NCBI GenBank assembly: GCA_051294375.1
Contig: CM119271.1
Coordinates: 6,573,632 to 6,637,631 of the forward strand
DNA: 64,000 nt
Direction of reading: 5' to 3'
DNA from: Paraspadella gotoi
Lineage: Eukaryota > Animalia > Chaetognatha
Every line of letters starts with the position of its first letter. The first letter of the stretch is position 1. Under the pieces are notes generated by a model, which was not told the DNA's origin, made no database searches, and saw only the letters and a list, made by a program, of their open reading frames with translations. Made by a program: the position numbers and the translations under genes. Below are positions 1 through 64,000 of this stretch, in pieces.

Positions 1-1087
1 TTCGCCTGATCCAAAGGGCAACGAGCGGAAGGATCTTCGCGACGGAGTAGTTGACCACCCATTCCATCTTGGCGCCGGCAAAAATTATAAAACGATGAGC
101 GTCGGGACAGGGCCACGGTCGGGTCGAAAGGGATTCGCCGAAAGAATCGAAGAATCGTCGACGCGGAAAGTCGACTTGAAGGAATTCGTCGACGACGCGC
201 ATGTCGGGGAATCCTTCGACCGACGAGACTTTCTTCGCCAATTGAGTCTCGAGGCGAAGCGTCTCTTCGGACAGCGCGTTCCAGGCGGCGCCACACGCGC
301 ATCCCGAGTCGCATTTGGGTAGATAATCGTCGGAAACGCAAGGAGTTCGAGTTTTCCACGTCTTGAGGCGAAGAAAGACGCCGTGGGGAGGGAAGGCGGA
401 GAGGACTTTAAGCGACGAAGCTCTCCCGATGCCTTTGACTCCCGAAGGGAAAAAATCGCAGCCGAGGAAAAGACCCAGCGCGATGAGCTTTTCCTGGTTG
501 AGCCCGAGAGAATCTCGGATAAAGTCTCGATCGTAAACGTCGATCTCAAGATCCTTCTTGGCGTCGCAGCCGAAGTTTTTGATGACCCTTTTGGCGCCGT
601 AAAGAAACGCGTCGCCGTCCTCGGTGATGACGCCGTCGACGACGCCGATCTGATTGAGCGCCGCGCAGGCTGCCTCCGCTTCGCCAGGGCTTTGTATCCA
701 TGGCACTCCGAGAGCGTCTAGCAAGTCGCAGCATTCCTTGAGGACAGATCGAAAACGAGACCGGCCGGTCACTTTTTTCTTGTTCTTGCCGGAATCCGGT
801 CCTGAGCCGAAACGAGCCTCGTTGCGTCGACGCATTGTCTGCTCTTTGAGGACGGGAGCTTCGCCCTCCACGCAAAAAATTAACTGGACATTATGCTCCA
901 GAAGTTTGAGAACGCGAAAAAAAATGTTTCGTAGATGCGGCCTTATAACGACTCCATGCATTTGGGTATTCTGCACTTCCACCACCCAGATTGCCAAATC
1001 TACTGCGAGACGCTGACCCGCTAACTGGGAGACGGGAACTTGGCGCGCGCCGGGCCGAAGGATGCTCCAAAGGCCTTTGACGCCCAT
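1..1087 (-). CDS. GEN1: GEN1 Holliday-junction resolvase / XPG-family endonuclease, 5' part (runs off the window)
   Basis: Absent from the ORF track because there is no stop in the window. Manual translation from ATG 1087 gives MGVKGLWSIL...LAVDLAIWVVE...RPHLRNIFFR...CVEGEAP...GEAEAACAALN...VITEDGDAFLYGA, the XPG-N and XPG-I motifs in GEN1 form. Confidence 0.9.
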   Translation of the reverse strand, partial: MGVKGLWSILRPGARQVPVSQLAGQRLAVDLAIWVVEVQNTQMHGVVIRPHLRNIFFRVLKLLEHNVQLIFCVEGEAPVLKEQTMRRRNEARFGSGPDSGKNKKKVTGRSRFRSVLKECCDLLDALGVPWIQSPGEAEAACAALNQIGVVDGVITEDGDAFLYGAKRVIKNFGCDAKKDLEIDVYDRDFIRDSLGLNQEKLIALGLFLGCDFFPSGVKGIGRASSLKVLSAFPPHGVFLRLKTWKTRTPCVSDDYLPKCDSGCACGAAWNALSEETLRLETQLAKKVSSVEGFPDMRVVDEFLQVDFPRRRFFDSFGESLSTRPWPCPDAHRFIIFAGAKMEWVVNYSVAKILPLVALWIRR

Positions 1088-1233
1088 TATAAAAACAAAG
1101 AGTCATACGGCTTTATTTCTAAAGTATAAAAAAAAACATACCATCGTATTACTACAACTAAAAAACTGCTTGATCGGAGAAGGAATAAATAATATTCGCA
1201 ACAAGATAACAATGATCATCGGATCGATAAAAA

Positions 1234-2604
1234 TCATTTTTTGAAGTTTATAGTATATCCGCCAGAGTTAGGGTCCTGTTGCAGCTGGAAATTTTCCGTA
1301 GACAACCCAAAAGGCTTTAAAACCATATTCCCCAGATCCTTGAGTTTTCCCATCATCTCCGCCTTTAGTTTTTCGTTCTTTTCATTGATTTCCCCGGGCA
1401 GTCTTCGACACGCCTCCACGGCCTCGCGTTGCCGCGGATCCTGCTCCAACACTTTTTGGTAGTCCTCCAAAGCCGACTCTAAATTCTCCAGCTTTTCGTA
1501 AATCTGGGCCCGCCTCAATCGAGCTTTGGTGTACTTGGGGTTGAGCTCGAGCGCCTTGCTGCAGTCGGCAGCGGCCCGTTTTCGCTCCTTCTCTGAATCG
1601 AATTTGAGGCGCACGGCGGCTCGGTTGGCGTAGAGTACGGACCGATCGTCGTCGTACATGAGCGGACAAAGGCGCAGGCCGGCGTCGTACTCGGCCAGGG
1701 CGGAGGCCCACTCGAAGACCTTGAAGTGGTCGTTGCCGCGAGATTTGTGTTGCCTCGCGAAGCGACGGTTTTCCTCTTTCTGCTCCACGGAAAGTCCTTT
1801 CTCCAATTCCGCCAATCTCTCCTCGTCGATGAAAGACGGGTCCGAACGATCCATTTTGTCTTCGTCGTCGGCATCGCCGGCATCGTCAGCGTCGGCAGCA
1901 GCAGCAGCAGTAGCAAAATTGCCGGCGTCTTCTTCGACCTCACGTTTTCTTCCATCTTCTTCGTCCCTGAATCTAGAAAACTCATTCCACGAGGCGCCGT
2001 CGCCATCGTCGTCGTCGTCAGGTATAGGGCGATAAAATCTATCGACTCGCTGCGTCCTTCGCTTCGAATCGCCGGCACCCGGTGCATCCTCGCCAACGGT
2101 GTCGAAATGATTCGGTCGGGGATTCTTTTCCGTGTCCAGATCCTTTTCCGAAACGGAGCTGATGGACTCTTTGTGTCTGACTCTAGAGTAGGTAGTTTTA
2201 TTATCACAGTCATCATCCTCGAAGGTGAATTCGTCGTTGAGCGACAGAGCAGCGTCGTCTTCAACTTCATCGTTTCTATCATCTTCGAGCGCGGCAACTG
2301 AATCCGCAACGTCGCACGGAACGACGCCGTGACCGGGGCGTGGGCGGTCGCGGGACAAAGGAACCTCATCTCGGATAACGTCGTTCGTCGGCGGATGCGC
2401 GACGCGATCGAGGACCACGCGACCGCGATCTGAAGTGAAATCGTCCTCCATCATTCGCCTCAATCGATCGATATCCTCGTCGTTGAGATCGTCGTCGTCA
2501 TCGCCGCTCGACGCCGTCAAGAAAGCCTCCTCATCATCCTCTTCCGCAACTAATTCCTCGTCGGCGTCTCCCTTATTCATGTCGTTTCTATCTCTCTTCG
2601 ACAT
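1234..2604 (-). CDS. TTC1: Tetratricopeptide repeat protein 1 with long acidic N-terminus
   Basis: Three TPRs (KSRGNDHFK...YANRAA...YTKARLRRA) and the TTC1 C-terminus EMMGKLKDLGNMVLKPFGLSTENF...GGYTINF. Intronless. Confidence 0.92.
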   Translation of the reverse strand: MSKRDRNDMNKGDADEELVAEEDDEEAFLTASSGDDDDDLNDEDIDRLRRMMEDDFTSDRGRVVLDRVAHPPTNDVIRDEVPLSRDRPRPGHGVVPCDVADSVAALEDDRNDEVEDDAALSLNDEFTFEDDDCDNKTTYSRVRHKESISSVSEKDLDTEKNPRPNHFDTVGEDAPGAGDSKRRTQRVDRFYRPIPDDDDDGDGASWNEFSRFRDEEDGRKREVEEDAGNFATAAAAADADDAGDADDEDKMDRSDPSFIDEERLAELEKGLSVEQKEENRRFARQHKSRGNDHFKVFEWASALAEYDAGLRLCPLMYDDDRSVLYANRAAVRLKFDSEKERKRAAADCSKALELNPKYTKARLRRAQIYEKLENLESALEDYQKVLEQDPRQREAVEACRRLPGEINEKNEKLKAEMMGKLKDLGNMVLKPFGLSTENFQLQQDPNSGGYTINFKK

Positions 2605-2785
2605 AGTTTTACCTCAACAGTCTCTCATTTCGCAACTTAGAGTAAAACAAATACGTATTTCGTCATCGGAAAAAAATGCAATTTTAATGAGAAATATTTT
2701 TAAATAGCAGCAGAAACATGATTTCATAACAAGTGTAAAAAAGGAGAATGGCATGGAATGCGTAAGAAGAAAAAATCCAGTCTTT

Positions 2786-3430
2786 TTATGACGTTTTTTC
2801 GTGGGCATCCACGAATGTCCGAATCCCCACGACTCCAGTTTGGACTTCTCTCGCCACCCCATCCCTGTTCTTTAGAGCCATGGTTAAAGCCCTTATAGTT
2901 CGCTTGTAAGGTCCGTTTAACAGTCGCTTGTTTCGGCCGAAGACTTCGCGCTCGATGGCCTCAGGGATATTATGCGTCTCTTCCAACCCCAGTGGCGCCG
3001 CGAGCATCCGCCTGGCGTTCCGACGCGTTCCTTCGGTCTTCTCGTCGCTACGCACTTCGATCATTGGCCGGGAGAGTTTGTTCTTGAAGTAAAGCTTCCA
3101 CTCGGCGCGAATCTCCTTGGCCAACCGCGCTACTTCAGGATCACCGTGTCGACGAAGGGCGTTGAGAGTCACGCCCACTTTAGTGCGGAGAAGGACCTCG
3201 CGCGAGGGGATCTTGCGACGGAGTTTGTTGAGGGCATCGAGGAGGTCGTCGGGCGTTTGCGTCTCGCATTCGAGGAGCGACTTGAGGCGCTCGATCTCTT
3301 CCACGACGACGACGCCGCGGAGATCCTCTATCGTCGCTTGACGAAGACGCGAACTTCCCAACGATGACGTAGGGCGCGAATGTGCAGAAGTAGAGCGAAC
3401 TACAAAACGGTCCATTGAGGATTGAGCCAT
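2786..3430 (-). CDS. TCEANC2: Transcription elongation factor A N-terminal and central domain-containing protein 2
   Basis: MDRFVVR start, RQATIEDLRGVVVVEEI, TFIIS N-terminal-like KIPSREVLLRTKVG, PMIEVRSD. First ATG (MAQSS) is at 3430. Confidence 0.85.
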   Translation of the reverse strand: MAQSSMDRFVVRSTSAHSRPTSSLGSSRLRQATIEDLRGVVVVEEIERLKSLLECETQTPDDLLDALNKLRRKIPSREVLLRTKVGVTLNALRRHGDPEVARLAKEIRAEWKLYFKNKLSRPMIEVRSDEKTEGTRRNARRMLAAPLGLEETHNIPEAIEREVFGRNKRLLNGPYKRTIRALTMALKNRDGVAREVQTGVVGIRTFVDAHEKTS

Positions 3431-4096: not shown

Positions 4097-5089
4097 TTAA
4101 AACTTATTAGACAACAAGTGCAAAATCCAGCGAGGTAATTGAATCCATGAAGGAACAAAGTCCGCTGCAGCAGCATAAACTCCACCAAGTGACAAAAGCC
4201 CCGTCTTGAGAGAGCGCATGTTGAGAGGGCGTAAGCCGTTGTCGTCCTTCAAGTCATATTCAGAGGCCAAATCTGCTGTCATCAAGATCTTTCCCGTTTT
4301 CACCATCACTTTCGGATCTGCAGCTAAAGCAGCTATGCACTTTCCCGGAAATTCGGGGCTTTCCCCTTTTTCAAACAGCTTTGCCATTCGATCAGCAGGA
4401 ATGTCGCCAAACCCTGGATCAGACATTTGACTAGTTCGATGCATAATCTCCTCAGTCTTGACAGGGCCTGGCCATAAGGAGATGCAAGCCACTCCATGTT
4501 TTTTTAACTCAACGGCGCAGTCTGCCATCATGCGATCTGTAGCAGCCTTGCCGACGCCATAGGGAACGTTAAATAAGTATTTCAATCCCCCCGCCGAGGA
4601 TACATTAACAATGAGACCTGATTGCCGTGCAACCATACGCTTGGCCGCTTGCATGGCGCAAATGTACGAATTGCGTAGTCCCACATGATTGATTTCATCC
4701 CATGTTGACGATCGTTGCTCCCAGAAAGGCACACCCATTTGATCGGAAACAGCTGCTACTCCAGAGAAGGCATTGTTTACCAGAATATCAAGACGGCCAT
4801 CATTGTCAGCATCTATTTTTTCAAAGAGGTGCACAATGTCTTCATCTTTGCCATGATCACATTGGACTGCGACGCCACTCCCAACACCACCGCCACGTGC
4901 CTTCATCTCCTCAATGGTCTCTTCAAGGGAACCTCCAGCCCCGTCTGCCTTGGGTTTGACAGTTCTACCAGTGACATAAACAAGCGCACCAGCTTCACAA
5001 AGTTGCAAAGCAATGCCTTTTCCAATACCGCGGGATGCACCAGTCACTAAAGCAATGTAACCTCGCAATGGATACTTTGACGATGACAT
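4097..5089 (-). CDS. DHRS1: Short-chain dehydrogenase/reductase DHRS1-like, copy A
   Basis: TGASRGIG Rossmann motif, LVNNA, catalytic YGVGK, and DHRS1-type LKYLFNVPYGVGK and SLWPGPVKTE. Intronless. Confidence 0.9.
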   Translation of the reverse strand: MSSSKYPLRGYIALVTGASRGIGKGIALQLCEAGALVYVTGRTVKPKADGAGGSLEETIEEMKARGGGVGSGVAVQCDHGKDEDIVHLFEKIDADNDGRLDILVNNAFSGVAAVSDQMGVPFWEQRSSTWDEINHVGLRNSYICAMQAAKRMVARQSGLIVNVSSAGGLKYLFNVPYGVGKAATDRMMADCAVELKKHGVACISLWPGPVKTEEIMHRTSQMSDPGFGDIPADRMAKLFEKGESPEFPGKCIAALAADPKVMVKTGKILMTADLASEYDLKDDNGLRPLNMRSLKTGLLSLGGVYAAAADFVPSWIQLPRWILHLLSNKF

Positions 5090-5509: not shown

Positions 5510-6502
5510 TTAAAATTTGTTAGAAAACAAGTGTATAACCCAACAAGGTAAATGGATCCAAGACGGAATATAATCCGAAACAATGGCGTAAATTCCGCCA
5601 AGTGACATTAGTCCAATTTTAACAGAACGCATATTATGGGGACGAAGGCCATTGTTGTCGCGCAAGTCATACTCTGAGGCCAAATCTGCTGTCATCAAAA
5701 TCCTTCCTGTCTTTGACATCACCTGAGGATCAGCAGCCAAAGCCACCACGCATTTTCCTGGAAACTCGGGGCTTTCGCCCTGTTCCAAAATCATTGCCAT
5801 TCTTTCAGTTGGAATCTCACCAAAACCTTTTTGGGACATCTGGCCCATACGGTGCTTAATCTCCTCGGTCTTCACGGCTCCAGGCCACAAGGAAATACAT
5901 GCCACACCACTACTTCTCAACTCAACAGCGCAGTCGGCCATCATGCGATCCATGGCAGCTTTGCCAACTCCATATGGGACGTTAAAAAGGTATTTTAATC
6001 CACCGGCAGACGAAATGTTAACAATAAGACCCGATTTGCGCTTCACCATAAGTTTGGCCGCCTGGACAGCGCAAATGTATGAATTTCGCAGCCCGACATT
6101 ATTGATCTCATCCCATGTTGATGCTCGTTGCTCCCAGAAGGGCACGCCCATTTGATCAGAAGTAGTTGGGATTCCGGAGAAGGCGTTGTTGACAAGAATG
6201 TCAAGACGACCATTTTCGGCGTCGATTCTTTGAAAGAGGGATAAAACATCCTCATCCTTGTTGTGATCGCACTGGACAGCAACACCGATCCCAACCCCAC
6301 CACTACGCGCCTCCATTTCCTGGACCGTTTCCTCAAGAGAGCCACCGATACTGTCAAGCTTGGGTTTAAGAGTTCTTCCCGTGACGTAGACGAGCGCACC
6401 AGCCTCACAAAGCTTCAAAGCGATACCTTTGCCGATACCGCGCGAGGCACCTGTCACTAAGGCAACACGACCACGTAATGGATACTTCGACGATGATGAC
6501 AT
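5510..6502 (-). CDS. DHRS1: DHRS1-like, copy B (tandem paralog)
   Basis: Colinear with copy A over its whole length. True start is MSSSSKYPL at 6502; the upstream extension in the ORF track is spacer sequence. Confidence 0.9.
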   Translation of the reverse strand: MSSSSKYPLRGRVALVTGASRGIGKGIALKLCEAGALVYVTGRTLKPKLDSIGGSLEETVQEMEARSGGVGIGVAVQCDHNKDEDVLSLFQRIDAENGRLDILVNNAFSGIPTTSDQMGVPFWEQRASTWDEINNVGLRNSYICAVQAAKLMVKRKSGLIVNISSAGGLKYLFNVPYGVGKAAMDRMMADCAVELRSSGVACISLWPGAVKTEEIKHRMGQMSQKGFGEIPTERMAMILEQGESPEFPGKCVVALAADPQVMSKTGRILMTADLASEYDLRDNNGLRPHNMRSVKIGLMSLGGIYAIVSDYIPSWIHLPCWVIHLFSNKF

Positions 6503-6907
6503 CTCGCTGCGATGACGTCTGAAGAAATGAAAATGCCTTTTCGTGTGAGATGACATATTTAATTCGAGAAACAATAATTCTTTAAATGGGGTACAGTTAA
6601 TACATTTTACAAAAAATATTGGGAACTGAAGAATGATACAACACGCATTAGACAAGAAAATAATGCGAAAAGAGAGAAACACTCAAGCGAATCACAAGGA
6701 CATCTAAGAGATACTTGAAAGGATACAATCGTAACACTTTTTGAGTTTTTTTATTTTAATGTCTTTTTCTGAAGCAAGGGAAGGGTGGTTACTTTATTAT
6801 TATTATTATCGTAATAATGATATTTTTCGTTGGGAGTGTTAGGAGAGTTATGAAAACTTCAATTCGCGTTGAGGAACTTCGTTGGATGGAATTTTTCATT
6901 TGACGCA

Positions 6908-7933
6908 TCAGCGCGAGCGAGAGCGCGATCGTCGCGCTGGAGAGTAGGACGGGGAGCCGCGTCTGTTACCGCTTCCACGCGGCGAGCGGCTACGCGAGCG
7001 AGAATAGCTTCTGCGCCCTTTCCCGTCTTCGAACCTGAACGAAAAAGTGCAAAAGGAATTTAAAAAAATCGGAGAAATATCGGTCTTCCGAGTCTAATGC
7101 CAAAAATACTCACTTGGGATCCATCTTGACCCGGATGTAAGCGACCTCCGCCTCGTGGGACCGGAACTTGGAATCATCGAGCTTCCTGGCCGCGTAAGTC
7201 ATGTCCTCATAGCGCATGAATTCGACGACGCCGGTCCCATCTTTGTAGACGTCGGTGTAGCAAACATCCCCGGCCTCGCGCATGTGATCCTTCAGATCTT
7301 GCCAGCTGCCTAGATGCCGGGAAAAGGTTTAAAAAAATTACAAAAATACGAAACTGAAACATGTGGTAGGTGTAGGTCGTTTCCCCTTTTCCCTTCGGAT
7401 TTCCTTCTCTTTAATTCAAAAGCATATACGTAGACTACAGAAATAAATTAACCTGAGGGAGGCAGACCAGAAACGAGGCAACGGTAATCCGAACGACGGG
7501 GATTTCCAACACGATCCCGTCCGCCACTGCTCCCGCCGCCGCCGCCGCCGCCTCCGCGACTGTAGCTGAAGCTGCGAGGACCACCACCACCACGGCCGCG
7601 GCCTCTGGAGGTCGAATCTCGAGGATATTCCACACGCAGTCTGTAGCCATCTAGAAACCAGGAGGGAAACCAGATTCAACGCTCAGTTGTATAAAGAATA
7701 TTTCGACGCGAGGCTCACATCTCACCGTAATCGTAGCCTTCTCGGGCGTAAACGGCGTCTTCGGCGTCCCTCGGGTCCTCAAACTCGACGAAAGCGAAGG
7801 GCGGGCCACGTTGGTTCTTCAGGTCGATCATGGTGATCTTTCCGTACCTGTAGAAGAGGTCCTCGATGTCCTTGTTGCGAATATCGGGCGGCAGATTCCC
7901 AACGTAAATGCGGCATTCTCCTCGAGACGACAT
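6908..7933 (-). CDS. SRSF1: Serine/arginine-rich splicing factor 1 (ASF/SF2), 4 coding exons (about 7933-7726, 7650-7453, 7309-7114, 7034-6908)
   Basis: RRM1 [12 protein letters not shown]...[16 protein letters not shown], Gly linker, pseudo-RRM [17 protein letters not shown] tail, and GT-AG introns in compatible phases. Confidence 0.93.
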
Positions 7934-10155
7934 TGTCGGTGGTCACGTAACGAGATGAGTCGTTGAACAAACGAGGAACTTCTACAAAAAGGCAGAGAGA
8001 GAGAGAGAAGGGAAAATGAGCGTTTGAGCTAAAGTCGTTGATTCAATTACTTTATTTACTTCATGGTGTTTACTGTTTAAATTCTTATAGAGCCTACGAA
8101 TCTTTTTCGATGCGATGGAAATTACTGTTCATCGAAAACGATTAACAAACGCCATCCTTTCTACCTCAATTCCGGTTATACTTTTTAAAATGGTCCGCTC
8201 CGAATTAAATCCGCGGCTATCCTATCCTTTGCCAGCGACGCTACCGCCGGCGAATCCTACATCCTCTCCATGGGAGGTTGGAGACTGGATAGTTGTCCTC
8301 CGAGAGGCTCCTCCGAGAATCCTTTTTTCCCTTTTTTAAATTAAACTAGACGGTAGACCGGACCGACCACCGAAAATTTTTTTTTCCGGCTCGGTGAAAA
8401 GACCCAAGTTCCCACGCCTTTTCCAAGGAACAAAAATTGGCAAAAGCCGTCTATCCCAAAGGAAAGGTTTTCGATGGAGATCCAGACGGAGTGTTCCATT
8501 TCCCCCCCACCCGGAAGAAAATCCGGGGACGAAATCCGAGAAAATCCTAAATTCTTCGGTGGGGGATGCTAAGAATGAGAAAATCCTCCACTCCACCTTT
8601 GAGAATCCCATTTCATCAGACGGTTTAAAATCCTCCGCGATCCAGCGGCGAAAGTTTGTTAATTTTTTTTTTATTTTCGGGCGCCCTCAGAATTTATCCC
8701 TCGTCCCTCCGCCGCCGAGATGCAATTCTCTTTTCTCCCACGGCGGCGGTGTCCTTCTCAAAAAATACGAGGTCCTACAACGATACAACGAACGGAACGA
8801 AGCGAATTCCGGGATAAAGGCGATTCCATTCCTGTCTCCGTGAGGGCAAAATCCGCGTGAAAGAGTAAAGGATATTCTCAAGCCTTTTCCGATGGCCGCG
8901 AGCACCTTAGGTATTTCTCGGTAGGTAATGGTTGAAAAAAACTCCAAGAAAAAAAAATTGATTCAAAAGAAATAAAAGGGATAATGATTTGCGGTCCTCG
9001 AGCGGTTTTCCTAGGTTTTCACGGTTTTTTATTCGCGAAATGGGAGCGGGGGAAAAATTAATCCATCCGGATATCCTATTTTTGGGCTCCCTCCTTATCC
9101 AAGATTTGGGCCTTTGTAGAAGGCCGCAGTTGGATGCCTGGAGTATGGGATGCGAGAGGAAAAAGTTAAACGATTTACGTAACATACTAATTGATTTTTA
9201 TAACCTCTCGATCTTATGTTTCGTTAAAGCTTTTATAACGATCGAAATAATGAATCAAGAATCAAAATTTATGCAAAATGATCGGTACCCTATTATTTCA
9301 GACAAAGGCCGATGAATAATGATGATGGCTCAACTCATGTAATATATCATAACTTTCGAAAACCCAAAACTAGGGTACAAGCGTGGTAAAATTAACAGCT
9401 TGAAATTATCAATATTTCTGATTCTTTGACTCGAGATTTAAAATACATGTATATGGAATTGCCTACAAAACCCAAGGAACACTCTGAATTAGATTAGCTA
9501 CTAGCGCACTAAATTTCATTATTAAATATTAAAAGATGCCAACGAAGATATTTTAAATAACAAATAATTTATTATTATTTATCGGATTAACGTTTAAGTA
9601 GTGAAATCGGCCAATTTATTTGTAAATACTAGTATATTATAAATTTATATTATGTCTAGCAAAATTCTATTATAAATTATTTGGTTAGAATATAATATAT
9701 AAAAAATATATTGAATAAGAAACTAAGCTTACGCTTTAGAAAAAACTGACCAAAATGCGAGGATAAAAGTTTCTAACCAGGAATTTGAAAAATATAAAGA
9801 AAATGTGTTTACAATACGTTACTTGGCTTACGAAGATACGTTGACGTTCGCCGACAAGTTTAAGTCCAAAGCGAGAAGGAAATAATCTGAAAAATATAAC
9901 GTTATTTGTGGCGGACGGCTAAAAGACAATAATAATAAAGAGGAAAAGCAAACAGTACATTTCCGTCGAATGGAAACATCGGGATTGGGTAACGTGCAGC
10001 GAAAATGAAAAAAAAAAAAATAACTGCTTCTGCGTGCGTTTGGTTTAGTACTTGTAATACTAATACTATCTTTCGCACAAAAAAAAATGTTAAATAAATA
10101 AATAGTTTGAAACAGAGTAAAACGTAAAAATGTCAGCGAATTCCGGGCCTTTTTT

Positions 10156-11681
10156 TCATCTGTGATGTAAGTAGAGCGCGACGACGACGAGGAGGAACGC
10201 CAGACAGAAAAAACCGTTGATTCTGAGGCCAAAGAGAATCATGGAGACGCTCGTCGAGATCATCATCGAGGAGGAAACGAGGAAGAGGCGGGCGATGTTG
10301 TTGGAATGCTTGAAGATGACGGACATGATGAGGCCACTCATTGCCTGGGTCCCAATCATGACCCAAGTCAAGAAGGTGAACCCGGTGAAGAGGTGTCGAC
10401 TATTCATTTCCACCGTCCCCGCGTTGTCGTGTTCTGTGACAAGGGACTCCACGAAGTAGGAGCCTCCGTTGAGGCCAACTCCAAAGGTGTAGAGCAGAAT
10501 GTTCTGAAGACTCAGCGGAAGCTGCTTTGACTTTTTGAGGATGTACTCGCTGAAGACGCCTAAAGAATTGTTGTGAAATTATTATCTATTTTTTTATTAG
10601 TATTATTATTTTAAAAATCGTTCTCTCGTTCCAAGCTTTTCGTCCGGACCAAACGAACCAGCCATGCCGGAGATGGAACAATAACAGACGATGAGAACGA
10701 GGCCAACCAAGGAAACGTGCATCTGACCCGCGTTCAATTGCCCGTCGAAGTACTGCATGAAAAAAGAGATGAGGTGAGGAAAAGTCTGGTACAATGCAAT
10801 GTGAGAAGGAAGAGAAAGAAACGGGACTGTAGAGAGAATGTCCAAGGCGAAAAGGTAAACGTGAACGCCTTGGGAGTTGGGACGAATGGGAATAACATTT
10901 ACGGTAAAAGAAGAGCATTATTAAATAGGCCTACTCACTGATCCGTTCGGTCCACTGGGCTGGGGAATAATGTATCCACCTAAGCTGTTAAAGACTCCGG
11001 CGAGAGTGAGAAGAAAGAGGGCGAACCATTTTATTCGGCTGAGCGGTTTCCGCAAAAATGTGCGATAAAGTAAAGCTGTCGTCGCTATTTTGAGATTTCC
11101 GAGTATCTGGAAATGATAATCAAATAATAATAAGAATACGTAATTACGTATATAGTATTAAGAGAATGAGGGAAAAATAGTGCAGCAAATGCGCCGAAAC
11201 AAACCTGGAAGCTCGCCGGATCCATATGAAGCTGGATGAAGTAAGAGAGATTGTTGTTGAGGGCGTAAAGCACGGCGGGCAGCGCAAAGGGCCAGACCTG
11301 CTGTACTAACGGCATTTGGATCTTCTTCCCGGAAGAGATTGAATATAGGGCGAAAAAAAACCCGCAGACGACCAGTTTGGTAAGCTCCGTCATCAGCACC
11401 ACCGACGAAGTGCTGAAGGGTATCTGGCCGTCAACCTCGCACAGATTAATGAAGACGGCGTGGGATCCATAGACGCAGGCGCCGACGACGAAGGTGAGCC
11501 GCCAGCCCCAAACTGAGGCGCGGGTGTTCAAAAAGGAAAAGGCGGGCGGCGGGCCTGGCTTGAGAACCGGTCCTTCACCTCGGATCGTTTGTTGATAGGA
11601 CGGCAAAACGCGCGCGTTGCGGTAAAGATCTTCGTCGACGATGTCGACTGAGTAAGAAAATTTTGGGCGCGGAGCGGACAT
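10156..11681 (-). CDS. SLC35A4: Nucleotide-sugar transporter SLC35A4-like (multi-exon)
   Basis: YGSHAVFINLCEVDGQIPFSTSSVVLMTELTKL is the SLC35A4-type N-terminus. Also PAVLYALNNN, MDPASFQ and GLIMSVIFKHSNNI. Confidence 0.82.
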
Positions 11682-43506: not shown

Positions 43507-47999
<4,493 letters not shown>

Positions 48000-48794: not shown

Positions 48795-48866
48795 CGTTAC
48801 CGAAAAGATTTTATGGAATAATACGTAATTTGTGAGTATTTTAAGAATTTTAAGTCCATAAAACTA

Positions 48867-53829: not shown

Positions 53830-55905
53830 TCAATCACCACCACAAGTCAACTTATGTTTTTTGAGAGCATAATTAAAAAAAAATCTTTTTCCGCAGGCAC
53901 AATTAAATTTAGGTGCATCGTGAAAAGCCTGGTGTTGAACTAAGTTATTCGAACATTTAAACGATTTTCCACATCCTTCAAATGTACATAAATATGGGCG
54001 AAAGTTGGAGTGAACTTTAGAATGGTTGTTCAGAGAGGTTAACCTCGGGAAATTTCTTTTGCATATTTTACAAGTGTAAACCTCATGATTCGCATTTTTC
54101 TCTATATGCCTTCTCATTCGATGAGACCGCAAATTTGATCTCGCCGCACCTTCCGTAGCTCCATATATCTGTTTTCCGCAAATGTCACAAATTATCTGTA
54201 TATTTCTAATTTTTTTTTCTTTACAAACATGCTTTTCCAAATTTTCTTTCTCACTGAAATACCGGTGGCACTTGTGACAACGAAATTTTAATTTATGAGT
54301 ATGTTGGAACAAATGGTTCGAAAGCCCACGTTCGCTAAAAAAAGTACGGATGCATTTGCGGCACTGTAACAAAGGCCGATGAAAGTGAATGTTGGAAATG
54401 TGGATGGTCATATTATCGATGGAAGTTTCGTCGCAGAAGGGACAGAGGTGAGCAAACTCGGGCCCATGATCTTCTAACATATGGTTCCGAGAAAAAACTC
54501 CTAAAGGCTTGTAACATCGAATGCATTCTAAGAATCTTTTATGGGAACTCTTGGGTTTTTTCAATCCAAGGTTAAAACTGGTCGTGTTGTAAACTTCTAG
54601 CTGATCAATAGCCTCTCGAATTTCATCGTCGGTACATTTTCGTTTCACTTTTCTCCCACGAGACGTAACGACAACGTTAGAAGGCGCATCATCTGATGTG
54701 GTCAAGTTTGTTTTCTTAATCTTAGGGGTTGTTGAAGTCGATTTTTCTGATTTGACCGAAATATCATTCTCGACTGTGGGATGCAAATATTCGGATTTAA
54801 TAAAATCCTTCTCGAGCTTAGGACTTGTGAAAGAAAAATCGCCAGCGTCGATATCAAAATCAATTTCCTGCTTGACTTGGACGTGAGACAAGTCTTCAGC
54901 AATAGGATCGTGAATGTTTGCTCGGCTCCATGCTTCTATATCCATCTCAAATTGACTAAATTTCCTGCTTTCAATTGGATCCGAGGAAGTTTCTATTATT
55001 TCTGACTGATTCTTGTCGCCTTCCTCATTTTGATTCATGAAGGCTTCTTCCCTTTGTGACTGACTATCGTCTCTTCTCTCATTTTGATTCAAGTTGGTTT
55101 CTTCCATTTGTAATTGACTATCTTTTCCGCTCCCATTTTGATCTGAGTTGGATTCGACGTTATCAATCGATGGACTGTCGTACCACTCTTCGTCGAGAAA
55201 AGACAAGTCTCGCGGTTTATTCTCCGCACGAGCCGCCGTTTTTTTCTTTTTCTTTCGCCTCTTTGCTGCCGCTTTTTCCGCGTCACTTTCGTCCGAGTCA
55301 AACATGGACGGGTGCTCTTTAATATAGGCTTTCATATTTAGACGCAGAGATCTTTCCCTGAAAAATAAATCTTTCCAACAATCGATGAGCGAATAAGATT
55401 TGAGCAAATGCTTTTTGACGCGGGCGTAAATTTGTTCCCCAATGATTTCAGGTAGTCTTTCCTTTTCTCTTTCGAATTGACGAACTTTATAATTAACCTC
55501 AAGGTACTTATTAAGTTGTTTGGGTTTTGGCTGTTTCTTATGTATGACTCTGAAATAAAACAAACGTCTGTGGTTTCTCTTTAGCCGAAGATTTTTTTCA
55601 TCTATTTTGTCCTCTAATTTTTTCAGCTGTTTAAAACAAGCCTTTAATTGGAAGTTTTTCTTCTTTAAATCCTTTGACAGCGTCTTTATTTTCTGTTTCC
55701 ACTGTTCACGCCATTTATGGTATTTATCTCGAGAGGATATCTTTTCAGTCTGATCGTTGGCAATTGCACTAGTTAGGTCTTCAGCATTCGACGGTTCACT
55801 CGAAATGGGAAAAACAGACGTTCGGTTTTCACTGCTTGTTCCTTGTAATTTTAGATTTCTAATTTCTGGAGAATTCCAATTTCGAAGACTGCTTTTACGA
55901 ACCAT
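53830..55905 (-). CDS. C2H2 zinc-finger protein with N-terminal coiled coil
   Basis: About 8 C-X2-4-C...H-X3-5-H fingers at the C-terminus (e.g. CKICKRNFPRLTSLNNHSKVH, RPYLCTFEGCGKSF). First in-frame ATG is 55905; the 5' end is uncertain. Confidence 0.8.
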   Translation of the reverse strand: MVRKSSLRNWNSPEIRNLKLQGTSSENRTSVFPISSEPSNAEDLTSAIANDQTEKISSRDKYHKWREQWKQKIKTLSKDLKKKNFQLKACFKQLKKLEDKIDEKNLRLKRNHRRLFYFRVIHKKQPKPKQLNKYLEVNYKVRQFEREKERLPEIIGEQIYARVKKHLLKSYSLIDCWKDLFFRERSLRLNMKAYIKEHPSMFDSDESDAEKAAAKRRKKKKKTAARAENKPRDLSFLDEEWYDSPSIDNVESNSDQNGSGKDSQLQMEETNLNQNERRDDSQSQREEAFMNQNEEGDKNQSEIIETSSDPIESRKFSQFEMDIEAWSRANIHDPIAEDLSHVQVKQEIDFDIDAGDFSFTSPKLEKDFIKSEYLHPTVENDISVKSEKSTSTTPKIKKTNLTTSDDAPSNVVVTSRGRKVKRKCTDDEIREAIDQLEVYNTTSFNLGLKKPKSSHKRFLECIRCYKPLGVFSRNHMLEDHGPEFAHLCPFCDETSIDNMTIHISNIHFHRPLLQCRKCIRTFFSERGLSNHLFQHTHKLKFRCHKCHRYFSEKENLEKHVCKEKKIRNIQIICDICGKQIYGATEGAARSNLRSHRMRRHIEKNANHEVYTCKICKRNFPRLTSLNNHSKVHSNFRPYLCTFEGCGKSFKCSNNLVQHQAFHDAPKFNCACGKRFFFNYALKKHKLTCGGD

Positions 55906-56545: not shown

Positions 56546-58279
56546 CTATCGAGGAATGCTTCCACCATTATAAGCCTCGCTCTCTCTGGCCAAACAGGCG
56601 TTGATGTGATGCCTCGTGATACGGGTCACGTCTTGCAGGCGTTCCGGGGACGGGGCATCTTCTGCCCTTGTACTCTCCCCTCCCGCGAACTGGTGGGGAG
56701 CATAAAGACCGAGTTTCACACCATAATCCGATTGTTGCTTTGACTTAATTTTTCCTTTTGCCCGATCGGGAAAAGGATTGCGGTAGGGGGTTTCCGATTC
56801 CGGTCGTTCGATAATAGGCGACGTCGAGGAAACGTGATCCGCCGAAAGATGACGAAATTCTTTGATCGATTGACGACGAGAAACGGAGGGAGATTGCGGA
56901 GAACGAGATTTTTGCTTGGTCCCATCTCGCGTGGAAGAAGAAGAACTCGTCAAGGACTTGGTCGGTGAGACTTGGAAGCTGGAAGCTTCCTTGGCGCCGA
57001 TATGCAGCACCCGTCGATTGGTAGCGGCTTCGGCGGAATTGTTCTTCCCTTCGTCGGAATTCTTCCGTGGAACTTTGAGATGATTTATGACGGGCTGAGG
57101 CCCAGCGATACTGGGGACGGAAGGCAGGACCAAGCCCGTTACGCGTTTGTAAGACTTGTGTAGCTTTTGAGGGGTGAGTTGAAGATACTGGGAAGCCTGG
57201 GCGTGCCGTTCTTTGAGTCGCCTCTGCCATTTTTCCAGCTCAGACGTTTGCGAGCCGATGGCCTTAAAATGCTTGAGTCTGAGTTCGCAGAGTTGCGGCA
57301 GCGGAAACGGCGCAAGTTGGTAGACGATGGTCATAAGCCGATCCACCTCCACAATTCCTGAGCTCTCGTCCACGGTCCTTGTCAAAATCTCTCCCATCCG
57401 AGTGTAAAAATCGTCGGCGGTTTTGATTCTCACCAGCACCTCCTCTTGCAGCAAGCCCCACAGGGCGAGTGAGGTTCGGATGAGGATCTCCGAGCCCTCC
57501 AGGAGGACGGCGTCCCAAACGCGTAGCACCGCCTCGGCCGGAAGCTGCGTAGCGAAGAGGGTGAGAAACCACTGCATGGTATAAACATCGGTCAAGGGCG
57601 GCCGTTCGTCGTCATCATGCTCGCTCTCCTCGCGCTTCAGGCGATCGAGATGCGCGTGCAGGCGCGGGAGGTGAGTGGCGAGTAGTTCTTGAAACACGGC
57701 CATGTCGACGGCCAAATCGCGCAGGTTGTCCGTAAAGTAAGACTTTGGGAGGACGCCGTCAATGAGATAGATCATGACCTTGAGAGCGGTCTCTTCTTCG
57801 CGGTCCATAACGTCGAGGATGACCGCGGCGATTACGTTGAAACCTTGACAATATCCCACACCCTTGTTCCATCGCGCGTACGCCAGAAGGACCCGCTTCA
57901 GCAAAGCGCGTTCCTGGTCGTTGTCCAGCCCGGAGAAGGAACTGCAGCCGGTCCGGTGGAGATCCTTTACGATCTGATAATCGAGCTCGTCGTCGTCGTC
58001 TGGATCAATCATTTCGTTGAAGGCGGCCTTGGAGGTTGACTCCCAGTCCACATTCTTGAGACTGTTAATGTGTCGCTCGGCGAGAGTCAGCCACACTTTA
58101 CGGCGGGAATCTTTCGGAAGGCCGTCGGGGAGTCGTGCAACAGCCTTCATGGCGTCGTGCCATTGTTCGAAACCGTCCTCAAACTTTCCAATGCCCAAAT
58201 AGCCATGGTATTTCGAGGCTCCTTCAGCCGGCTGAAGGCTCGAAGCAAACATCCCGTTCAATTGGGAAAAAATATTCAT
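56546..58279 (-). CDS. TBC1D30: TBC1 domain family member 30 (Rab GAP)
   Basis: FEQWHDAMKAVARLP.G, IVKDLHRTGC (R finger), YCQGFN (Q finger), LAVDMAVF, PPLTDVYTMQWFLTLF. Confidence 0.9.
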   Translation of the reverse strand: MNIFSQLNGMFASSLQPAEGASKYHGYLGIGKFEDGFEQWHDAMKAVARLPDGLPKDSRRKVWLTLAERHINSLKNVDWESTSKAAFNEMIDPDDDDELDYQIVKDLHRTGCSSFSGLDNDQERALLKRVLLAYARWNKGVGYCQGFNVIAAVILDVMDREEETALKVMIYLIDGVLPKSYFTDNLRDLAVDMAVFQELLATHLPRLHAHLDRLKREESEHDDDERPPLTDVYTMQWFLTLFATQLPAEAVLRVWDAVLLEGSEILIRTSLALWGLLQEEVLVRIKTADDFYTRMGEILTRTVDESSGIVEVDRLMTIVYQLAPFPLPQLCELRLKHFKAIGSQTSELEKWQRRLKERHAQASQYLQLTPQKLHKSYKRVTGLVLPSVPSIAGPQPVINHLKVPRKNSDEGKNNSAEAATNRRVLHIGAKEASSFQVSPTKSLTSSSSSTRDGTKQKSRSPQSPSVSRRQSIKEFRHLSADHVSSTSPIIERPESETPYRNPFPDRAKGKIKSKQQSDYGVKLGLYAPHQFAGGESTRAEDAPSPERLQDVTRITRHHINACLARESEAYNGGSIPR

Positions 58280-58516: not shown

Positions 58517-60418
58517 TCATGTATGCTTATTTTTTGAATTTTTTTTCAGTTCCTTCAACCTCATCTGTTCCTTCAAATATTCGAGCGCAAGTTCGTAGCG
58601 TTCAAAGTACGGTTCCAACTCCTCCTCGTCGGCTCGCACCCTGTGCATGGCCTTTTCGTCTTTTCCCGCCTCCTCCATCATTCCAGCAAAGTGCGCCTTT
58701 TGATTCTCTTCCAACAACGTGATGGCGCTGCCGGCGCGCCCAGCTCGAGCCGTTCGTCCCACGCGATGAACGTACGTCTTGACAAAGGCAGGACAGTCGT
58801 AGGAAATGACCCATTTAACGCCGGGTAAGTCCATGCCGCGGGCCATGGCGTCGGTGCAAACTACCACGTCCAACTTTTCCGCGTCGAACTGTCGGATGAT
58901 TCGCTCGCGTTTTAGTGGGGAGAGGGCGGAGGAAAACTCACGAACGGAGAAACCCCCGAAACCCTTGGAGAGGTGGAGCAATTTTCGGGCGTTCTCTTTG
59001 GTCTTGGTGAAGAGCAGAACCCGTTTGAATTTGAGTCGCGTCATGAAGTAGAGGAAAATGAGGGGCTTTAGAGATGGATTCTTAACGAAGCAAGTGTATT
59101 CGGCCAAGCCTTTGGGCGTCGTGTATTTGCCGAGAAATTGACCCTCACGCGGCGCAGATATCTCGCTTTCGGTGGCACCAGATTTTTTCGGCTGGACCGA
59201 CGTAAAAAGTTTCGGTTGAAATAAACGTAAAGCTTCAAGTTTTTCAGGATTTTGACTCAAAGTGGCCGAAAATAGAAGCTTCTGCAATGGATACACGGGC
59301 TTCATGGGCTTGTTGAGCCCGCCGAGACACAGAGCATCCTCGTGACTCACAATTTCTCGGTCGCGTTTGGCCGATTCTTCCACCGCCTCCAACCAATCCT
59401 GCTTTATGTCTTGCATCATTCGATCGGCCTCATCGATGACAAGGAATCGAAGTTTAGAGAGCGAGAATCCTGGAGTCGTTTGGAGATGATCAACGAGTCG
59501 ACCCGGCGTCGCCACCAAAATGTCCACTTTTGAGTAGGTGCCGGAACGAAGCTGCCATACGAGTGCTTTTCGCTCTTTTTCCATCGTCTGGTGACCGGAT
59601 ACCGCCAGTCCCACCTTGAGTCCCAGACAGGCCGCGTGGATTGAAAAAACTCTGAACACTTGCAGCGCCAAGTCCTTTACGGGAAGGACCACCAAGGCCC
59701 GCACGGCCGGTACGACGCGCTGACTGAGAGCCTGGAGGATGGGAACGACGTAGGCGAGTGTTTTGCCAGATCCGGTCGGCGCCGAGACACAGATGTCGTT
59801 CGGTCGAAGGAATCCGGGCTCGAGATAAAGGGTTCCGGGATGAAGACTACCGAGCAAAAATGGAACAACTTGGCGTTGCACCGGGAAGAAGTATCTTACG
59901 CCGTTTTCCTGTAGACTTTGTCGCAGACGTTCGTCGATGAGGGCCTCATCGCCGATTGGAGTTTTACCCTCGTCCAAATTGACCGCCACAACTGAAGGTT
60001 TGGATAACCACTCGGGAAGGACTCTTTCCACGACCGACCGTTGTATCCAATCGGACGGGGAAAGGACTGTGAATCCTCCCACTTCTCTGTTGTTGGAGAG
60101 AGATTCTACGGCTTCAGTCGAGGCAGACGGCTCAGTTACGGTCGATTCTTCAATTTCCCGTGTCCCTCCGAGCGAAGAAGGATACCCGGTGGCATCGTTG
60201 GATTCTTCCTGGATTATTTCCTCATTTTCTTCTCTTTTCTCCAGTTTCCGCTTTTTCGTTTTTTTCTTCTTCTTCTTTTTTTCTTCTTCCACTTCCCGCT
60301 CCGCTTTTCTTTTTAACGCCCTCGATTTCAACTGCGCAAGGACGTCGTCCGTGGGAGTTTCTGTCACCAAGTCCGACTCGTCTTCTCCCAGGTATCGGTT
60401 CACAGTAAACAGTGCCAT
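58517..60418 (-). CDS. DDX51: DEAD-box RNA helicase DDX51 (Dbp6)
   Basis: MALFTVNRY, LPEWL, FFPVQ Q-motif, APTGSGKT, TPGRLVDH, DEAD, FSATL, YVHRVGRTAR. Confidence 0.92.
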   Translation of the reverse strand: MALFTVNRYLGEDESDLVTETPTDDVLAQLKSRALKRKAEREVEEEKKKKKKKTKKRKLEKREENEEIIQEESNDATGYPSSLGGTREIEESTVTEPSASTEAVESLSNNREVGGFTVLSPSDWIQRSVVERVLPEWLSKPSVVAVNLDEGKTPIGDEALIDERLRQSLQENGVRYFFPVQRQVVPFLLGSLHPGTLYLEPGFLRPNDICVSAPTGSGKTLAYVVPILQALSQRVVPAVRALVVLPVKDLALQVFRVFSIHAACLGLKVGLAVSGHQTMEKERKALVWQLRSGTYSKVDILVATPGRLVDHLQTTPGFSLSKLRFLVIDEADRMMQDIKQDWLEAVEESAKRDREIVSHEDALCLGGLNKPMKPVYPLQKLLFSATLSQNPEKLEALRLFQPKLFTSVQPKKSGATESEISAPREGQFLGKYTTPKGLAEYTCFVKNPSLKPLIFLYFMTRLKFKRVLLFTKTKENARKLLHLSKGFGGFSVREFSSALSPLKRERIIRQFDAEKLDVVVCTDAMARGMDLPGVKWVISYDCPAFVKTYVHRVGRTARAGRAGSAITLLEENQKAHFAGMMEEAGKDEKAMHRVRADEEELEPYFERYELALEYLKEQMRLKELKKNSKNKHT

Positions 60419-60700: not shown

Positions 60701-63700
60701 TTAAGAATTGGTTACATCGTCTATAAGCGTTAAAAGTTGCTGTTTGGCCTTTTTATTGAGATGCGAGACGCAACCAACAAGACCGCTCATTTGTTTCTTT
60801 GAATAGATGCCCTTTTTTTCTAGGACCCACTGCTCCAGCGAAGGCTCGGGCAAGTAAAAAGCTTTGATGTAGCCTTCGACGTAATCTCGGTCTGGAATCG
60901 GACGCAGGTCAGTCAGCTGCTCTAACTTGCTCAAAAACTGCTGATAATCTAACTGCATAAGCGCTCGACCTTCGTTGCTACACTTTTTCGTGCAGGCATA
61001 ACCTTCGACGAAAGTGCGGCTGGCCAGACGAATCACGTGCTCCCACAGAACATCGGTGACCACGGCGGGGACGGGCATCGACTTGGCTACCTCGCCGACT
61101 TTTCGAGCCATGCGTCGGAGCTCTCGCAGCGCGTCGTCGATGTACTGGCTGTGTTGCGACATTATCTCGTCAATGTCGAAAGCCGCTACGGCGATCGAAT
61201 TGAGGACGGATTCGTAGTTTACGGCTTGAACGGCGACGACTCGGTATACGGGGCGACGTAGTTCAACCGCCTGCGCCACAGATTGTGCGTAAAACTGCTG
61301 CATCCCCTGACGCTGACCCGGAGCTAAAAGCTTCTCAAAATGCGGTCGAAGAATGAGAACTTGCTCCGAAAGATAAACCAAGGACTCAGATGCGGCGACT
61401 CTTTCGGCGAAACAAAACAAGGCCGCTTCGTCTTCGGTTGAACTCAAGATCGGCGACAAGTTTGGCGCCGCCACTTTAAGTGTTTCCCCTTTGTCGGAGG
61501 CACAGTTGGCATCGTTCGTCGGACCCTCACGCCGAAGGATGAGTTCTTCACGCACGCGCTTTAACGTCCCCCGCAATCGAGACGGCAGCATCTTGTCGCC
61601 AACGAGGGAGCCAGTGAGGGCGTTTGAATCAACGTTGGAGCCACCAAGCAGAGTGGATTGGCTGCGGCCGAAGAACAGAAAGGTAGAGTAGAAGAGAAAC
61701 TCGTAAAGCTGAGTGGCGCCCACGAAGACATCAAAGGCAATCGGTTCCAGGGCCTGCATCATCTGCAGGTACTTGCCGATGAGCCGAAGCACGTTGAGAG
61801 TGGCGTTGGTCACGAGCGGGAGAGAAGCGTCAGGCCTTATCGGCTTTTTGTGGCGGATGGAGTGGACAACGACGGCGTCTTCGTCCTCCTCGATGGCTTC
61901 CCGTTTAAGCTCCTCGGATTCGGAATCAGAGTCACCGGCGTCGCCGGAATCGTCGGCCCAAACGTCTTCGACAAACTCTTCCTCTTTGCACAGGGCGTCG
62001 AAGGGGCTGGAGTTTTCCACGTAGCAGGCAAATACGTCTCCGGGGACTGAGTTGGCGGTCGGTCGCGGGAATAAACGGTTCGAACCTTCAGTGTCGACCT
62101 TTGACTGATTTTGTTTGCGCAAAAAGCGAAACTCGTAGAGCTGCTCGAGGGTAAAGGTCGACTTAACCGGAAGAAGGACCCAACCCTCGTTCTCCAAAAA
62201 CATTCGCAGCTCATCCAGGCAAGCGCGATGATAATGCTTAAAATAATTGATGCTCTGCTTTTTCATTCCGTCCCTGAGCCCTTCACTTGACGAAGCCGGA
62301 CAGAACTGAGCTCCAACGGCGATGAGAGTGTTCCCGATTCGTAGAACCTGCATAAAGTCGTCAAACTTGTACGAAGAAAGGTCCGAGGCCAGGAGGTAAA
62401 CCTTGACCTTTTGCTGCACGTCTTGCCAAATGCGAGAGACGCCGTGCTCGAGTTTTTGGCGCACGTAGGTGCAGGACTCAGGCGAGACATCCGCCTCTGG
62501 ACGGCGCGAGCTCGAGATTGTCGGCGGCGGGGGCGGGGGTGTACCAAAGCAGGGATCCTCGTTAAGGGTGGCGTCTTTAAGGGCGTCCTGGTGATCGAGT
62601 ATACGAGTCTTGTACCATCCCATTACCGAGTCGTAATTTCTCAGGATGCCGAAAAGCTCTTTCGAAAGGTCGACAAGGCACGGTACAAAAGACTCGGCTG
62701 GGATAAAACGGCACAAGTCACTGTACTGCTTTTTGCGAAAGTCGATATTGGATCCCGAATATTGAGACGAACAATACGACGATGACTGCGACGTCGACGA
62801 CTGCGACCGGCTGGGACCAAAGGGATTGGAATAAGAATCATCCTCGCCCGTTGTCTCGAATGAACTCTGCGGATAGGCGAGTTCCACGTGTCCAAGTACG
62901 ATATTGAATGCCAGGTTGTGGATAGTGCTGGCGAAGTGCATGAGCAATTGATCCACGGATGTCTCTGTCTTGCCCAGCATGGCGTAGGATTTTTGAAGCT
63001 TAGCAAATTCATCGCAGTCGAAGTGTTGAGGTATTCGACCAAGGGCGACGTCGAGACCCTCCTCGATCAATTCCAGTGTATCCTGCAGTTTGGAGCCCAA
63101 TTCGGCGATGCACTGGTGCTGTCGATGACGAAGGCTGGCGGCGCGGCAGTCGAGGCAGAGTTCGATGGCTCGGGCGTAATCCTCGGCGTCCACCATGGCC
63201 CGGAGAGCGGCGTCAGTGGCGCGTAGGCGTCGAATAGTTTTCAGCGATTCCAACAGAAATCGGAAACGAGATCGGCGCCGGGTTCTGGCGTATAGGCGTA
63301 GTGATTCTCCCGTAAAATCGTCGCGTGCGGCCGCGAGGGATCTGTAAGGTAAAAAAAATTTTGGCCAGAATAGATTATTTTTACAAAATAAAAAAATTTA
63401 AATAAACGTTCGTTCGATAGTCCTCACAAGGCTCATAGTCATAGTCATAGTCATACCTCCTCGACGAGGCAGCAACGGAAACGGCGTTCTTAAGCCCTTC
63501 CTGCAACTCAACAACACGGGCCAGCTCGTCCTGGAAAGCTGTGCTGTTCTGCAGCACAGCGTCGGAAAGCATTCGGCAGACCACGTCGAGTTGTTTGCGA
63601 AGCAGCGCCCGCCGCTCGGCGACTGCGTCTAGTTCCAGTGTTCCCTCGGCGGTGGCCGCCGCCGTTTCTTCCAACCCTTCCAACTCATGTCGGCCGGGGT

Positions 63701-63905
63701 CGGCGCCACCCTCCTCGAAGTATAACTGTGGTAGCGCCGATAGGAGGTCGCGGTCGACTTCGGGATTGGGTAATGGCTGACGGGGCGCCTCGAACCCCGT
63801 AAAAAATACGCCCGAAGAGTCAGCGTCTCGAGGTTCTGGTTCATCCTCGACCGAAGGTTGGGTCAGGTTTTCCACCAGGTTTTTCAGTTTTCGAAGGGCG
63901 GCCAT
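60701..63905 (-). CDS. VPS50: Syndetin / EARP complex subunit VPS50 (CCDC132), 2 exons (63905-63457, 63341-60701)
   Basis: ELGSKLQDTLE, RIWQDVQQKVK, ELRMFLENEGW, AERVAASESL, KKCSNEGRALMQLD, YVEGYIKAFYL. Confidence 0.92.
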
Positions 63906-64000
63906 TAAATGGTCAATCGGATTTTTAAATTTTTTTATTTTGTTAAGAATTGACTGAAAAGATGGGAAAATGTAAAGAGAGGAAAGACAAACGCAACACA

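Follow-up and report, generated by a model that had tools for sequence, protein, structure and literature searches.

Why should 64 kb of an animal genome carry all of its genes on one strand? The stretch in question, 64,000 nucleotides (nt) of the chaetognath Paraspadella gotoi (contig CM119271.1, positions 6,573,632 to 6,637,631; the window hereafter), holds 27 of 27 host genes, mostly unrelated housekeeping genes, on its minus strand, arranged head-to-tail, beginning with VPS50 at the right edge and ending with GEN1, which continues past the left edge. We consider it probable that the window comprises several adjoining one-strand operons, whose precursor RNAs would be resolved by spliced-leader (SL) trans-splicing, and that internal promoters probably lie within the run, with one candidate upstream of SRSF1. 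What is new is the length, at least 27 genes without a change of strand, which is three times that of the longest operon reported; the mechanism is already known for the phylum. The original prediction had proposed 26 genes on one strand, perhaps transcribed as very long polycistrons. The co-orientation holds and the count becomes 27, while polycistronic transcription with leader trans-splicing is supported in kind, because the phylum has SL-resolved operons, orthologues in relatives carry leaders, and RNA contigs bridge or abut most of the tested spacers; one very long transcript is the less likely reading.

The one-strand run and its spacers

Genes were counted by reading the entire minus strand and fixing start and stop codons. 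The Pfam cut-off is reached by 22 of the 27, and TMEM267 falls just short of it (YdjM, E 3.9e-6). The SAAL1-like gene, also below the cut-off, has an Atlas match of 0.95 and a minus-strand intron that is skipped in RNA, and the remaining three (the brambleberry-like gene, gene X and the Ig/mucin gene) lack a family match in Pfam; for gene X, the Atlas search gave nothing usable. On the plus strand, none of 125 stop-to-stop open reading frames (ORFs) of at least 75 amino acids reaches the Pfam cut-off, a test that genes made only of short exons would escape, and the two weak Pfam matches found there are both antisense to minus-strand genes. Gene names beyond the level of the Pfam family are those we presume, except DDX51, BCAP31 and CMC1, which have named database matches. 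From right to left, that is, in the direction of transcription, the features are as follows, with their basis in brackets (UTR, untranslated region).

60701..63905, minus strand: VPS50/syndetin, one predicted intron (Pfam Vps54_N, Syndetin_C)
58517..60418, minus strand: DDX51 helicase, intronless (Pfam; named matches)
56546..58279, minus strand: RabGAP-TBC gene, presumably TBC1D30-like (Pfam)
53830..55905, minus strand: C2H2 zinc-finger gene (Pfam)
52647..53615, minus strand: HUS1 (Pfam)
50140..52310, minus strand: gene that we take to be brambleberry-like, approximate model (sequence alone)
48867..49589, minus strand: gene X, whose RNA contig continues to 48267 (RNA contig)
43507..47999, minus strand: CUL1, 16 coding-region introns, 15 of them seen spliced, and a predicted 5′ UTR intron at 48060-48131 (Pfam; RNA)
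37674..42566, minus strand: OCRL/INPP5B, RNA contig start computed at 42580, the first base after AG (Pfam; RNA)
36735..37337, minus strand: gene presumed to be TMEM267-like, sharing an RNA contig with OCRL (Pfam YdjM below cut-off; RNA)
36220..36516, minus strand: COA3 (Pfam; RNA contig)
35608..36021, minus strand: CMC1 (Pfam; orthologues with SL-derived peptides)
34699..35406, minus strand: BCAP31 (Pfam; orthologue with SL-derived peptide)
33323..34354, minus strand: bHLH gene, which we take to be MNT-like, sharing an RNA contig with SAAL1 (Pfam HLH; RNA)
29652..32113, minus strand: SAAL1-like gene, one 500-nt intron seen skipped (RNA; Atlas)
24974..28354, minus strand: Ig/mucin-like membrane gene, approximate model (sequence; weak I-set, E 0.05)
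21596..24592, minus strand: TFIP11 (Pfam)
20151..21279, minus strand: NTMT1 (Pfam)
14430..19983, minus strand: MRE11, ten predicted introns (Pfam; gene model)
12060..13506, minus strand: nucleotide-sugar transporter (SLC35A2-like), five introns seen spliced (Pfam; RNA)
10156..11681, minus strand: nucleotide-sugar transporter (SLC35A4-like), three introns seen spliced (Pfam; RNA)
8155..9155, no strand assigned: GC-rich island (0.45-0.49) in the longest spacer, with no consistent T-A skew (composition)
6908..7933, minus strand: SRSF1-like SR protein, RNA contig start computed at 7981, the first base after AG (Pfam; RNA)
5510..6556, minus strand: DHRS1-like paralogue a (Pfam; repeat comparison)
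4097..5089, minus strand: DHRS1-like paralogue b (Pfam; repeat comparison)
2786..3430, minus strand: TCEANC2-like gene, RNA contig end at 2636, which is the G in the AG of the gene that follows (Pfam; RNA)
1234..2604, minus strand: TTC1, RNA contig aligned to 2639 (Pfam; RNA)
1..1087, minus strand: GEN1, running off the window, RNA contig start at 1118, the first base after AG (Pfam; RNA)

The 26 stop-to-start gaps have a median of 347.5 nt and a maximum of 2,222 nt. The nine gaps quoted originally (146, 167, 181, 198, 201, 214, 218, 237 and 282 nt) are exact, and they are the nine shortest. Eight gaps measure at most 250 nt, and the longest chain of genes joined by such gaps has four members. 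The spacers had also been described as T-rich on the sense strand, and T does exceed A in all 26; since the T fraction of spacers (0.376) equals that of introns (0.374), however, T-richness alone is not specific to operons.

RNA contigs and spliced leaders

Whether the spacers are transcribed was followed with one sequencing run, X9, placed on 29500-49400, beside the DNA run X5, and on 1-14400. No RNA label is on record among the 11 runs, and X9 was judged to be RNA by its intron skips: it skips minus-strand GT-AG and GC-AG introns that X5 retains. From the joints viewed (15 of 73 on 29500-49400 and 11 on 1-14400), 27 introns in five genes were resolved as skipped, including the SAAL1 intron from aligned pieces, and RNA depth in one OCRL bin is 50.7, against an exon-only expectation of 50.8. 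Contig cleaning may remove weak intron paths, so X9 may hold trace DNA. Single X9 contigs span nine of the 16 tested junctions, namely OCRL-TMEM267, COA3-CMC1, CMC1-BCAP31, MNT-SAAL1, SLC35A2-SLC35A4, the three of SRSF1-DHRS1a-DHRS1b-TCEANC2 and, judging by the length of an RNA contig, MRE11-SLC35A2. At three more, which brings those spanned or abutting to 12 of 16, contigs end 0-58 nt short of the next acceptor: the contig of TCEANC2 stops at the G of the TTC1 acceptor, that of TTC1 46 nt before the GEN1 acceptor, and that of gene X ~58 nt before a CUL1 acceptor. Every depth bin in both placed regions has RNA cover.

The upstream ends of contigs speak to how the downstream RNAs may begin. Ten such ends could be placed, from eight of 32 pieces on 1-14400 and eight X9 rows on 29500-49400. 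In three of them the first base directly follows an AG, 14-48 nt ahead of the ATG, for which the chance is ~0.01 (0.009 as computed for nine contig ends). The GEN1 start at 1118 was read directly; that of SRSF1 at 7981 was computed, and the contig shares 30 nt with the genomic contig upstream, as is typical of a branch; that of OCRL at 42580 was computed from an exon model translating to 981 amino acids. A fourth, the TTC1 contig, aligns four letters past its acceptor (AG 2637-2636), to 2639, with one mismatch and five loose letters, a stopping point that is as predicted because the published leader ends in TAAA. A leader whose last letter is A, not G, would also account for a branch placed precisely on the first base of the exon. 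At OCRL there is, in addition, a short upstream ORF (42597-42663) behind a strong acceptor at 42663, and the contig start at the second AG skips its start codon.

Leaders were seen, in translation, on orthologues in relatives. The DDX51, BCAP31 and CMC1 proteins of the window each fall in a long-stemmed clade apart from all sampled named phyla (support 100, 95 and 99, respectively), in quick trees built from top matches only (47, 54 and 27 rows) that sampled no rotifers, nematodes or flatworms. For DDX51, six relatives lie at 58-68% identity and the named matches, spread across molluscs, a priapulid and deuterostomes, at 49% or less. Some clade proteins were called from the edges of transcript contigs and have extra N-terminal residues, and four of 385 proteins (P0270, P0290, P0371 and P0372, all in window-gene clades) have leader-derived N-termini, with matches of 8/8, 9/10, 9/10 and 7/10. 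No further protein among the 385 carries a leader peptide in its first 25 residues, nor does any of 4,997 background blocks. P0270 (BCAP31), placed in the tree through its cluster representative P0143, begins with the exact eight-residue translation of the published chaetognath SL2.0 after its stop, and the three CMC1 proteins match SL3 and SL1 translations; P0371 and P0372 share one cluster yet differ in leader form. P0283, of a second BCAP31 paralogue, starts with the last three leader residues, and the BCAP31 relative P0252 has an 18-residue extension without a leader. BCAP31, the one gene examined for this, forms two sister paralogue clades (21 and 11 rows, joined at 99), as expected because chaetognath-wide duplications are reported (PMC12460157). 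Leader-derived peptides and BCAP31 duplicates together make it very likely that the clade is chaetognath, and, to judge from the N-termini, relatives trans-splice their orthologues of BCAP31 and CMC1, two genes of the tightest group. Glass sponges, tunicates, nematodes and kinorhynchs, which had been weighed as source lineages, were set aside in view of the leader peptides. The list of trans-spliced genes published in 2008 contains none of six gene-name stems. A metagenome scan with the DDX51 alignment gave 80 loci at 27-40% identity, among them no close relative that had neighbours, and a viral-contig scan with BCAP31 gave no relative.

A second chaetognath offers a parallel. For Spadella cephaloptera, PMC2481426 gives a leader table and one two-gene operon with 3 nt between the genes, and remarks that other genes of the bacterial artificial chromosome (BAC) share the orientation of the operon. 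In the 24 rows of its Table S5 for BAC 35A21, all 14 host-labelled rows are on the plus strand, from 99 to 119,826 (~120 kb); four minus rows comprise three transposon rows and one unlabelled row that shares its number with a transposon row, five more plus rows are mobile or unlabelled, and one row has no orientation.

Tests on the letters of the window itself were weak. Of the 26 genes, 17 have a T-rich AG no more than 140 nt from the ATG, compared with 12.6 in shuffles (p 0.027) and nine on the other strand. Among seven patterns tried, uncorrected, TTYAG (13 of 26, p 0.01) and TTTAAA (11 of 26, p 0.02) give a modest signal. No GC-containing 9-mer is common to three of the nine long spacers, and relict leaders are not enriched ahead of start codons (p 0.5). 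The 16-nt leader tail has one match in the window, with two mismatches, which is at chance level (24 of 100 shuffles); this 14/16 match, at 60424-60439 on the minus strand, lies 6 nt before the DDX51 start codon. Rfam finds no SL RNA in the window (two weak matches overall), and there is no tRNA in it. A bacterial promoter scan, irrelevant to an animal, was at chance. The GC-rich island lies under a lower-depth RNA record, record 4 (7952-9309), whose contig leads from 9309 to the SRSF1 acceptor; it is possibly an internal promoter and outron, in which case the run would be divided.

A probable chain of operons and its rivals

How might such a run arise and persist? With several adjoining operons, polymerase II would pass each poly(A) site, a U-rich AG, a few to ~60 nt beyond that site, would receive the leader, and the capped downstream RNA would escape degradation. 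Promoters would sit in some spacers only, one of them probably upstream of SRSF1. A gene arriving in sense orientation could do without its own promoter, and an inversion would either forfeit expression or run into transcription, so that whole domains would stay on one strand far past the length of a single operon.

A number of observations weigh against this reading. All RNA support comes from the single run X9, the test covers 16 of the 26 junctions (those on 1-14400 and 29500-49400), and the loose ends viewed were 6 of 11 on 1-14400 and 12 of 348 on 29500-49400. An assembled contig across genes does not establish one transcript, as overlapping UTRs or trace DNA could bridge them. Leader addition in the window's own species is our inference, drawn from contig starts at AG acceptors and from the chaetognath leaders seen on the mRNAs of relatives. 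Six of the ten placeable contig starts lend no support: that of COA3 has 31 unaligned letters, unexplained and not at an AG; that of CUL1 lies 12 nt upstream of an AG; that of MNT falls in a masked poly-A run; those of MRE11 and gene X are inside coding sequence; and that of record 4 is likewise not supporting. A joint dropped beside a repeat on 1-14400 might reflect cis-splicing to the SRSF1 acceptor. An acceptor matrix built from the 27 introns marks two of 26 spacers at p≤0.05, with no general excess over shuffles. As for Spadella, BAC 35A21 was selected by the authors for clusters of the same orientation, and Table S5 has 24 rows though predictions are numbered to g41, with matchless predictions omitted. 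In the region of the unexplained COA3 letters (36576-36600), we note a U-rich AAG 18 nt further upstream.

Could the window instead be part of a single polycistronic unit of more than 64 kb, trypanosome-like, with its promoter beyond the right edge and its long spacers representing long 3′ UTRs or insertions? We think this unlikely, although several observations favour it: no gene was found on the plus strand, T exceeds A in every spacer, RNA covers every depth bin of both placed regions, contigs cross even spacers of 923 and 1,209 nt, and the 1,297-nt gap is largely an inserted inverted-repeat element. A start upstream of SRSF1 is suggested, however, by the GC-rich island there and by record 4, which is a separate contig; nine of the 26 gaps exceed 500 nt; RNA depth falls to 0 at 34407, between BCAP31 and MNT, though a contig hole proves little; and in P. 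gotoi the longest operon reported under a 250-bp rule has nine genes, with 18% of genes operonic (PMC12460157). The opposite extreme, in which most genes have their own promoter and are singly trans-spliced via outrons, while co-orientation is kept by something else, such as avoidance of antisense overlap, and the bridging reflects overlapping UTRs, strikes us as improbable. It would suit a species in which nearly half of the genes are trans-spliced and only those 18% operonic (PMC12460157), as well as the gaps above 500 nt, and contigs cannot tell UTR overlap from co-transcription. Yet the TCEANC2 contig ending on the TTC1 acceptor AG and the TTC1 contig ending 46 nt before the GEN1 acceptor leave a promoter nowhere to sit except within the upstream gene, this abutting geometry is the one that defines the Spadella operon (PMC2481426), and 27 of 27 genes on one strand would be left unexplained.

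Might the run be chance, or an assembly artefact, within an operon-rich genome? The chance was originally put at 2x0.5^26 from independent orientations. Because two pairs are paralogues (DHRS1a/b and the two SLC35A genes), about 25 orientations are independent, and the figure becomes ~6e-8 by hand estimate, versus 1.5e-8 for 27. Independent orientations would yield 0.0002 such runs per 22,000 genes, and 57% same-strand neighbours, our own estimate from the published P. gotoi operon counts, just 0.004; at 70-75% same-strand neighbours, 0.6 to 3 runs would be expected. The window was, moreover, picked from a very large scan for co-orientation itself. As to an artefact, 84-99% of the words of 29650-39400 are found in nine sequencing runs from three studies (two of them possibly the source), and X5 and X9 contigs are colinear with the window. 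Taken together, this explanation appears very improbable, and the chain of operons is the reading that we retain.

Comparison with other arrays, and further observations

Like the chaetognath SL operons described so far (PMC2481426, PMC12460157), the run belongs to the phylum (as inferred above), has leader forms on relatives' orthologues, with several forms on one gene, consists of housekeeping genes, and has an upstream 3′ end abutting a downstream acceptor. Unlike them (at most nine genes under the 250-bp rule, PMC12460157), it extends over at least 27 genes and 64 kb. Because its longest chain at 250 nt or less has only four genes, the run represents a higher level of order than the operon under that definition. 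In the main text of PMC12460157, whose spreadsheet supplement may list operons or strands, the word "strand" is not used, and we found no description of long one-strand runs in chaetognaths in the literature, of which subscription papers were mostly outside the search.

Among other animals, the operons of Ciona intestinalis (PMC2760879; PMC7986045) similarly have genes abutted at the trans-splice acceptor, as in TCEANC2-TTC1, no operon-specific leader, and many single-exon genes; they differ in that the largest has six (PMC2760879) to seven (PMC7986045) genes, and in their unrelated leader and independent origin. The operons of Caenorhabditis elegans and Oikopleura (PMC7986045, PMC11067885) share head-to-tail housekeeping genes, short U-rich spacers and resolution by SL, whereas C. 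elegans has a dedicated SL2 and randomly oriented transcription units (bioRxiv 10.64898/2026.07.29.740908). A run of such length in either animal was not met in the portions of PMC7986045 and PMC11067885 available. Closest in scale are the trypanosomatid directons, tens of unrelated co-oriented genes with a mean of ~30 genes, compared with ~2 in animals (bioRxiv 10.64898/2026.07.29.740908, the text of which does not mention chaetognaths); the window has 27. In contrast to the largely intronless genes of trypanosomatids, the window has its 27 RNA-skipped introns in five genes, though many of its genes are single-exon; the candidate internal start upstream of SRSF1 argues against the one start and one stop of a trypanosomatid unit; and chaetognaths trans-splice only about half of their genes (PMC12460157). 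Further literature for comparison is in PMC10282587, PMC2776167 and bioRxiv 2025.12.04.692336.

Animal operons in the cited literature contain two to nine genes and the mean same-strand run in animals is ~2 genes, so far as these sources report; a 27-gene run, together with the hint from a second chaetognath, suggests that an animal genome can shift towards the trypanosome layout under the influence of leader trans-splicing. A bolder proposal, which we offer tentatively and with somewhat more doubt than conviction, is that much of the chaetognath housekeeping genome may lie in trypanosome-scale one-strand domains with few promoters, resolved by SL and with introns kept, which would be the first case in an animal, overlooked through the 250-bp operon cut-off. 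The run also bears on operon growth and on the reasons for the paucity of regulatory elements at trans-spliced genes and for the lack of clear chromatin domains in chaetognaths (PMC12460157). Annotation would be affected because fused gene models are likely in such runs.

Several smaller features of the window may be recorded. COA3 and CMC1 (35608-36516), adjacent cytochrome c oxidase assembly factors 198 nt apart on a common RNA contig, form a functionally linked pair within an otherwise mixed run. DDX51 and CMC1 are intronless here and their relatives P0004, P0006 and P0361 have apparent read-through introns; an intron loss in this lineage is possible. CUL1 has two consecutive GC-AG introns (46544-46812 and 46968-47038) with an identical 8-nt donor, both seen spliced, and one of its introns contains a SNORD10-like C/D small nucleolar RNA candidate (46626-46707, minus strand; E 0.022 and 29 bits, short of the gathering score, which is 37). 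The gene model of MRE11 (14430-19983), which is based on the reading frame alone, predicts a third GC donor, and AAG ends five of its ten predicted introns, versus CAG or TAG in all 27 RNA-confirmed introns elsewhere. Within a predicted MRE11 intron, 15686-17700 is an element whose terminal inverted repeat is perfect over 25 nt and which has further inverted repeats inside; its four plus-strand ORFs have no Pfam match. Nested inverted repeats resembling a miniature inverted-repeat transposable element (28700-29520) occupy most of the 1,297-nt SAAL1-Ig/mucin spacer. Introns of SAAL1, OCRL and CUL1 (30164-30827, 39460-40500 and 43955-44200) hold very high-copy repeats, with X5 summed depth to ~160,000; there is a 22-nt minisatellite at 39746-40020, and degenerate telomere-like CCCTAA repeats lie in the 3′ region of gene X (48620-48710).

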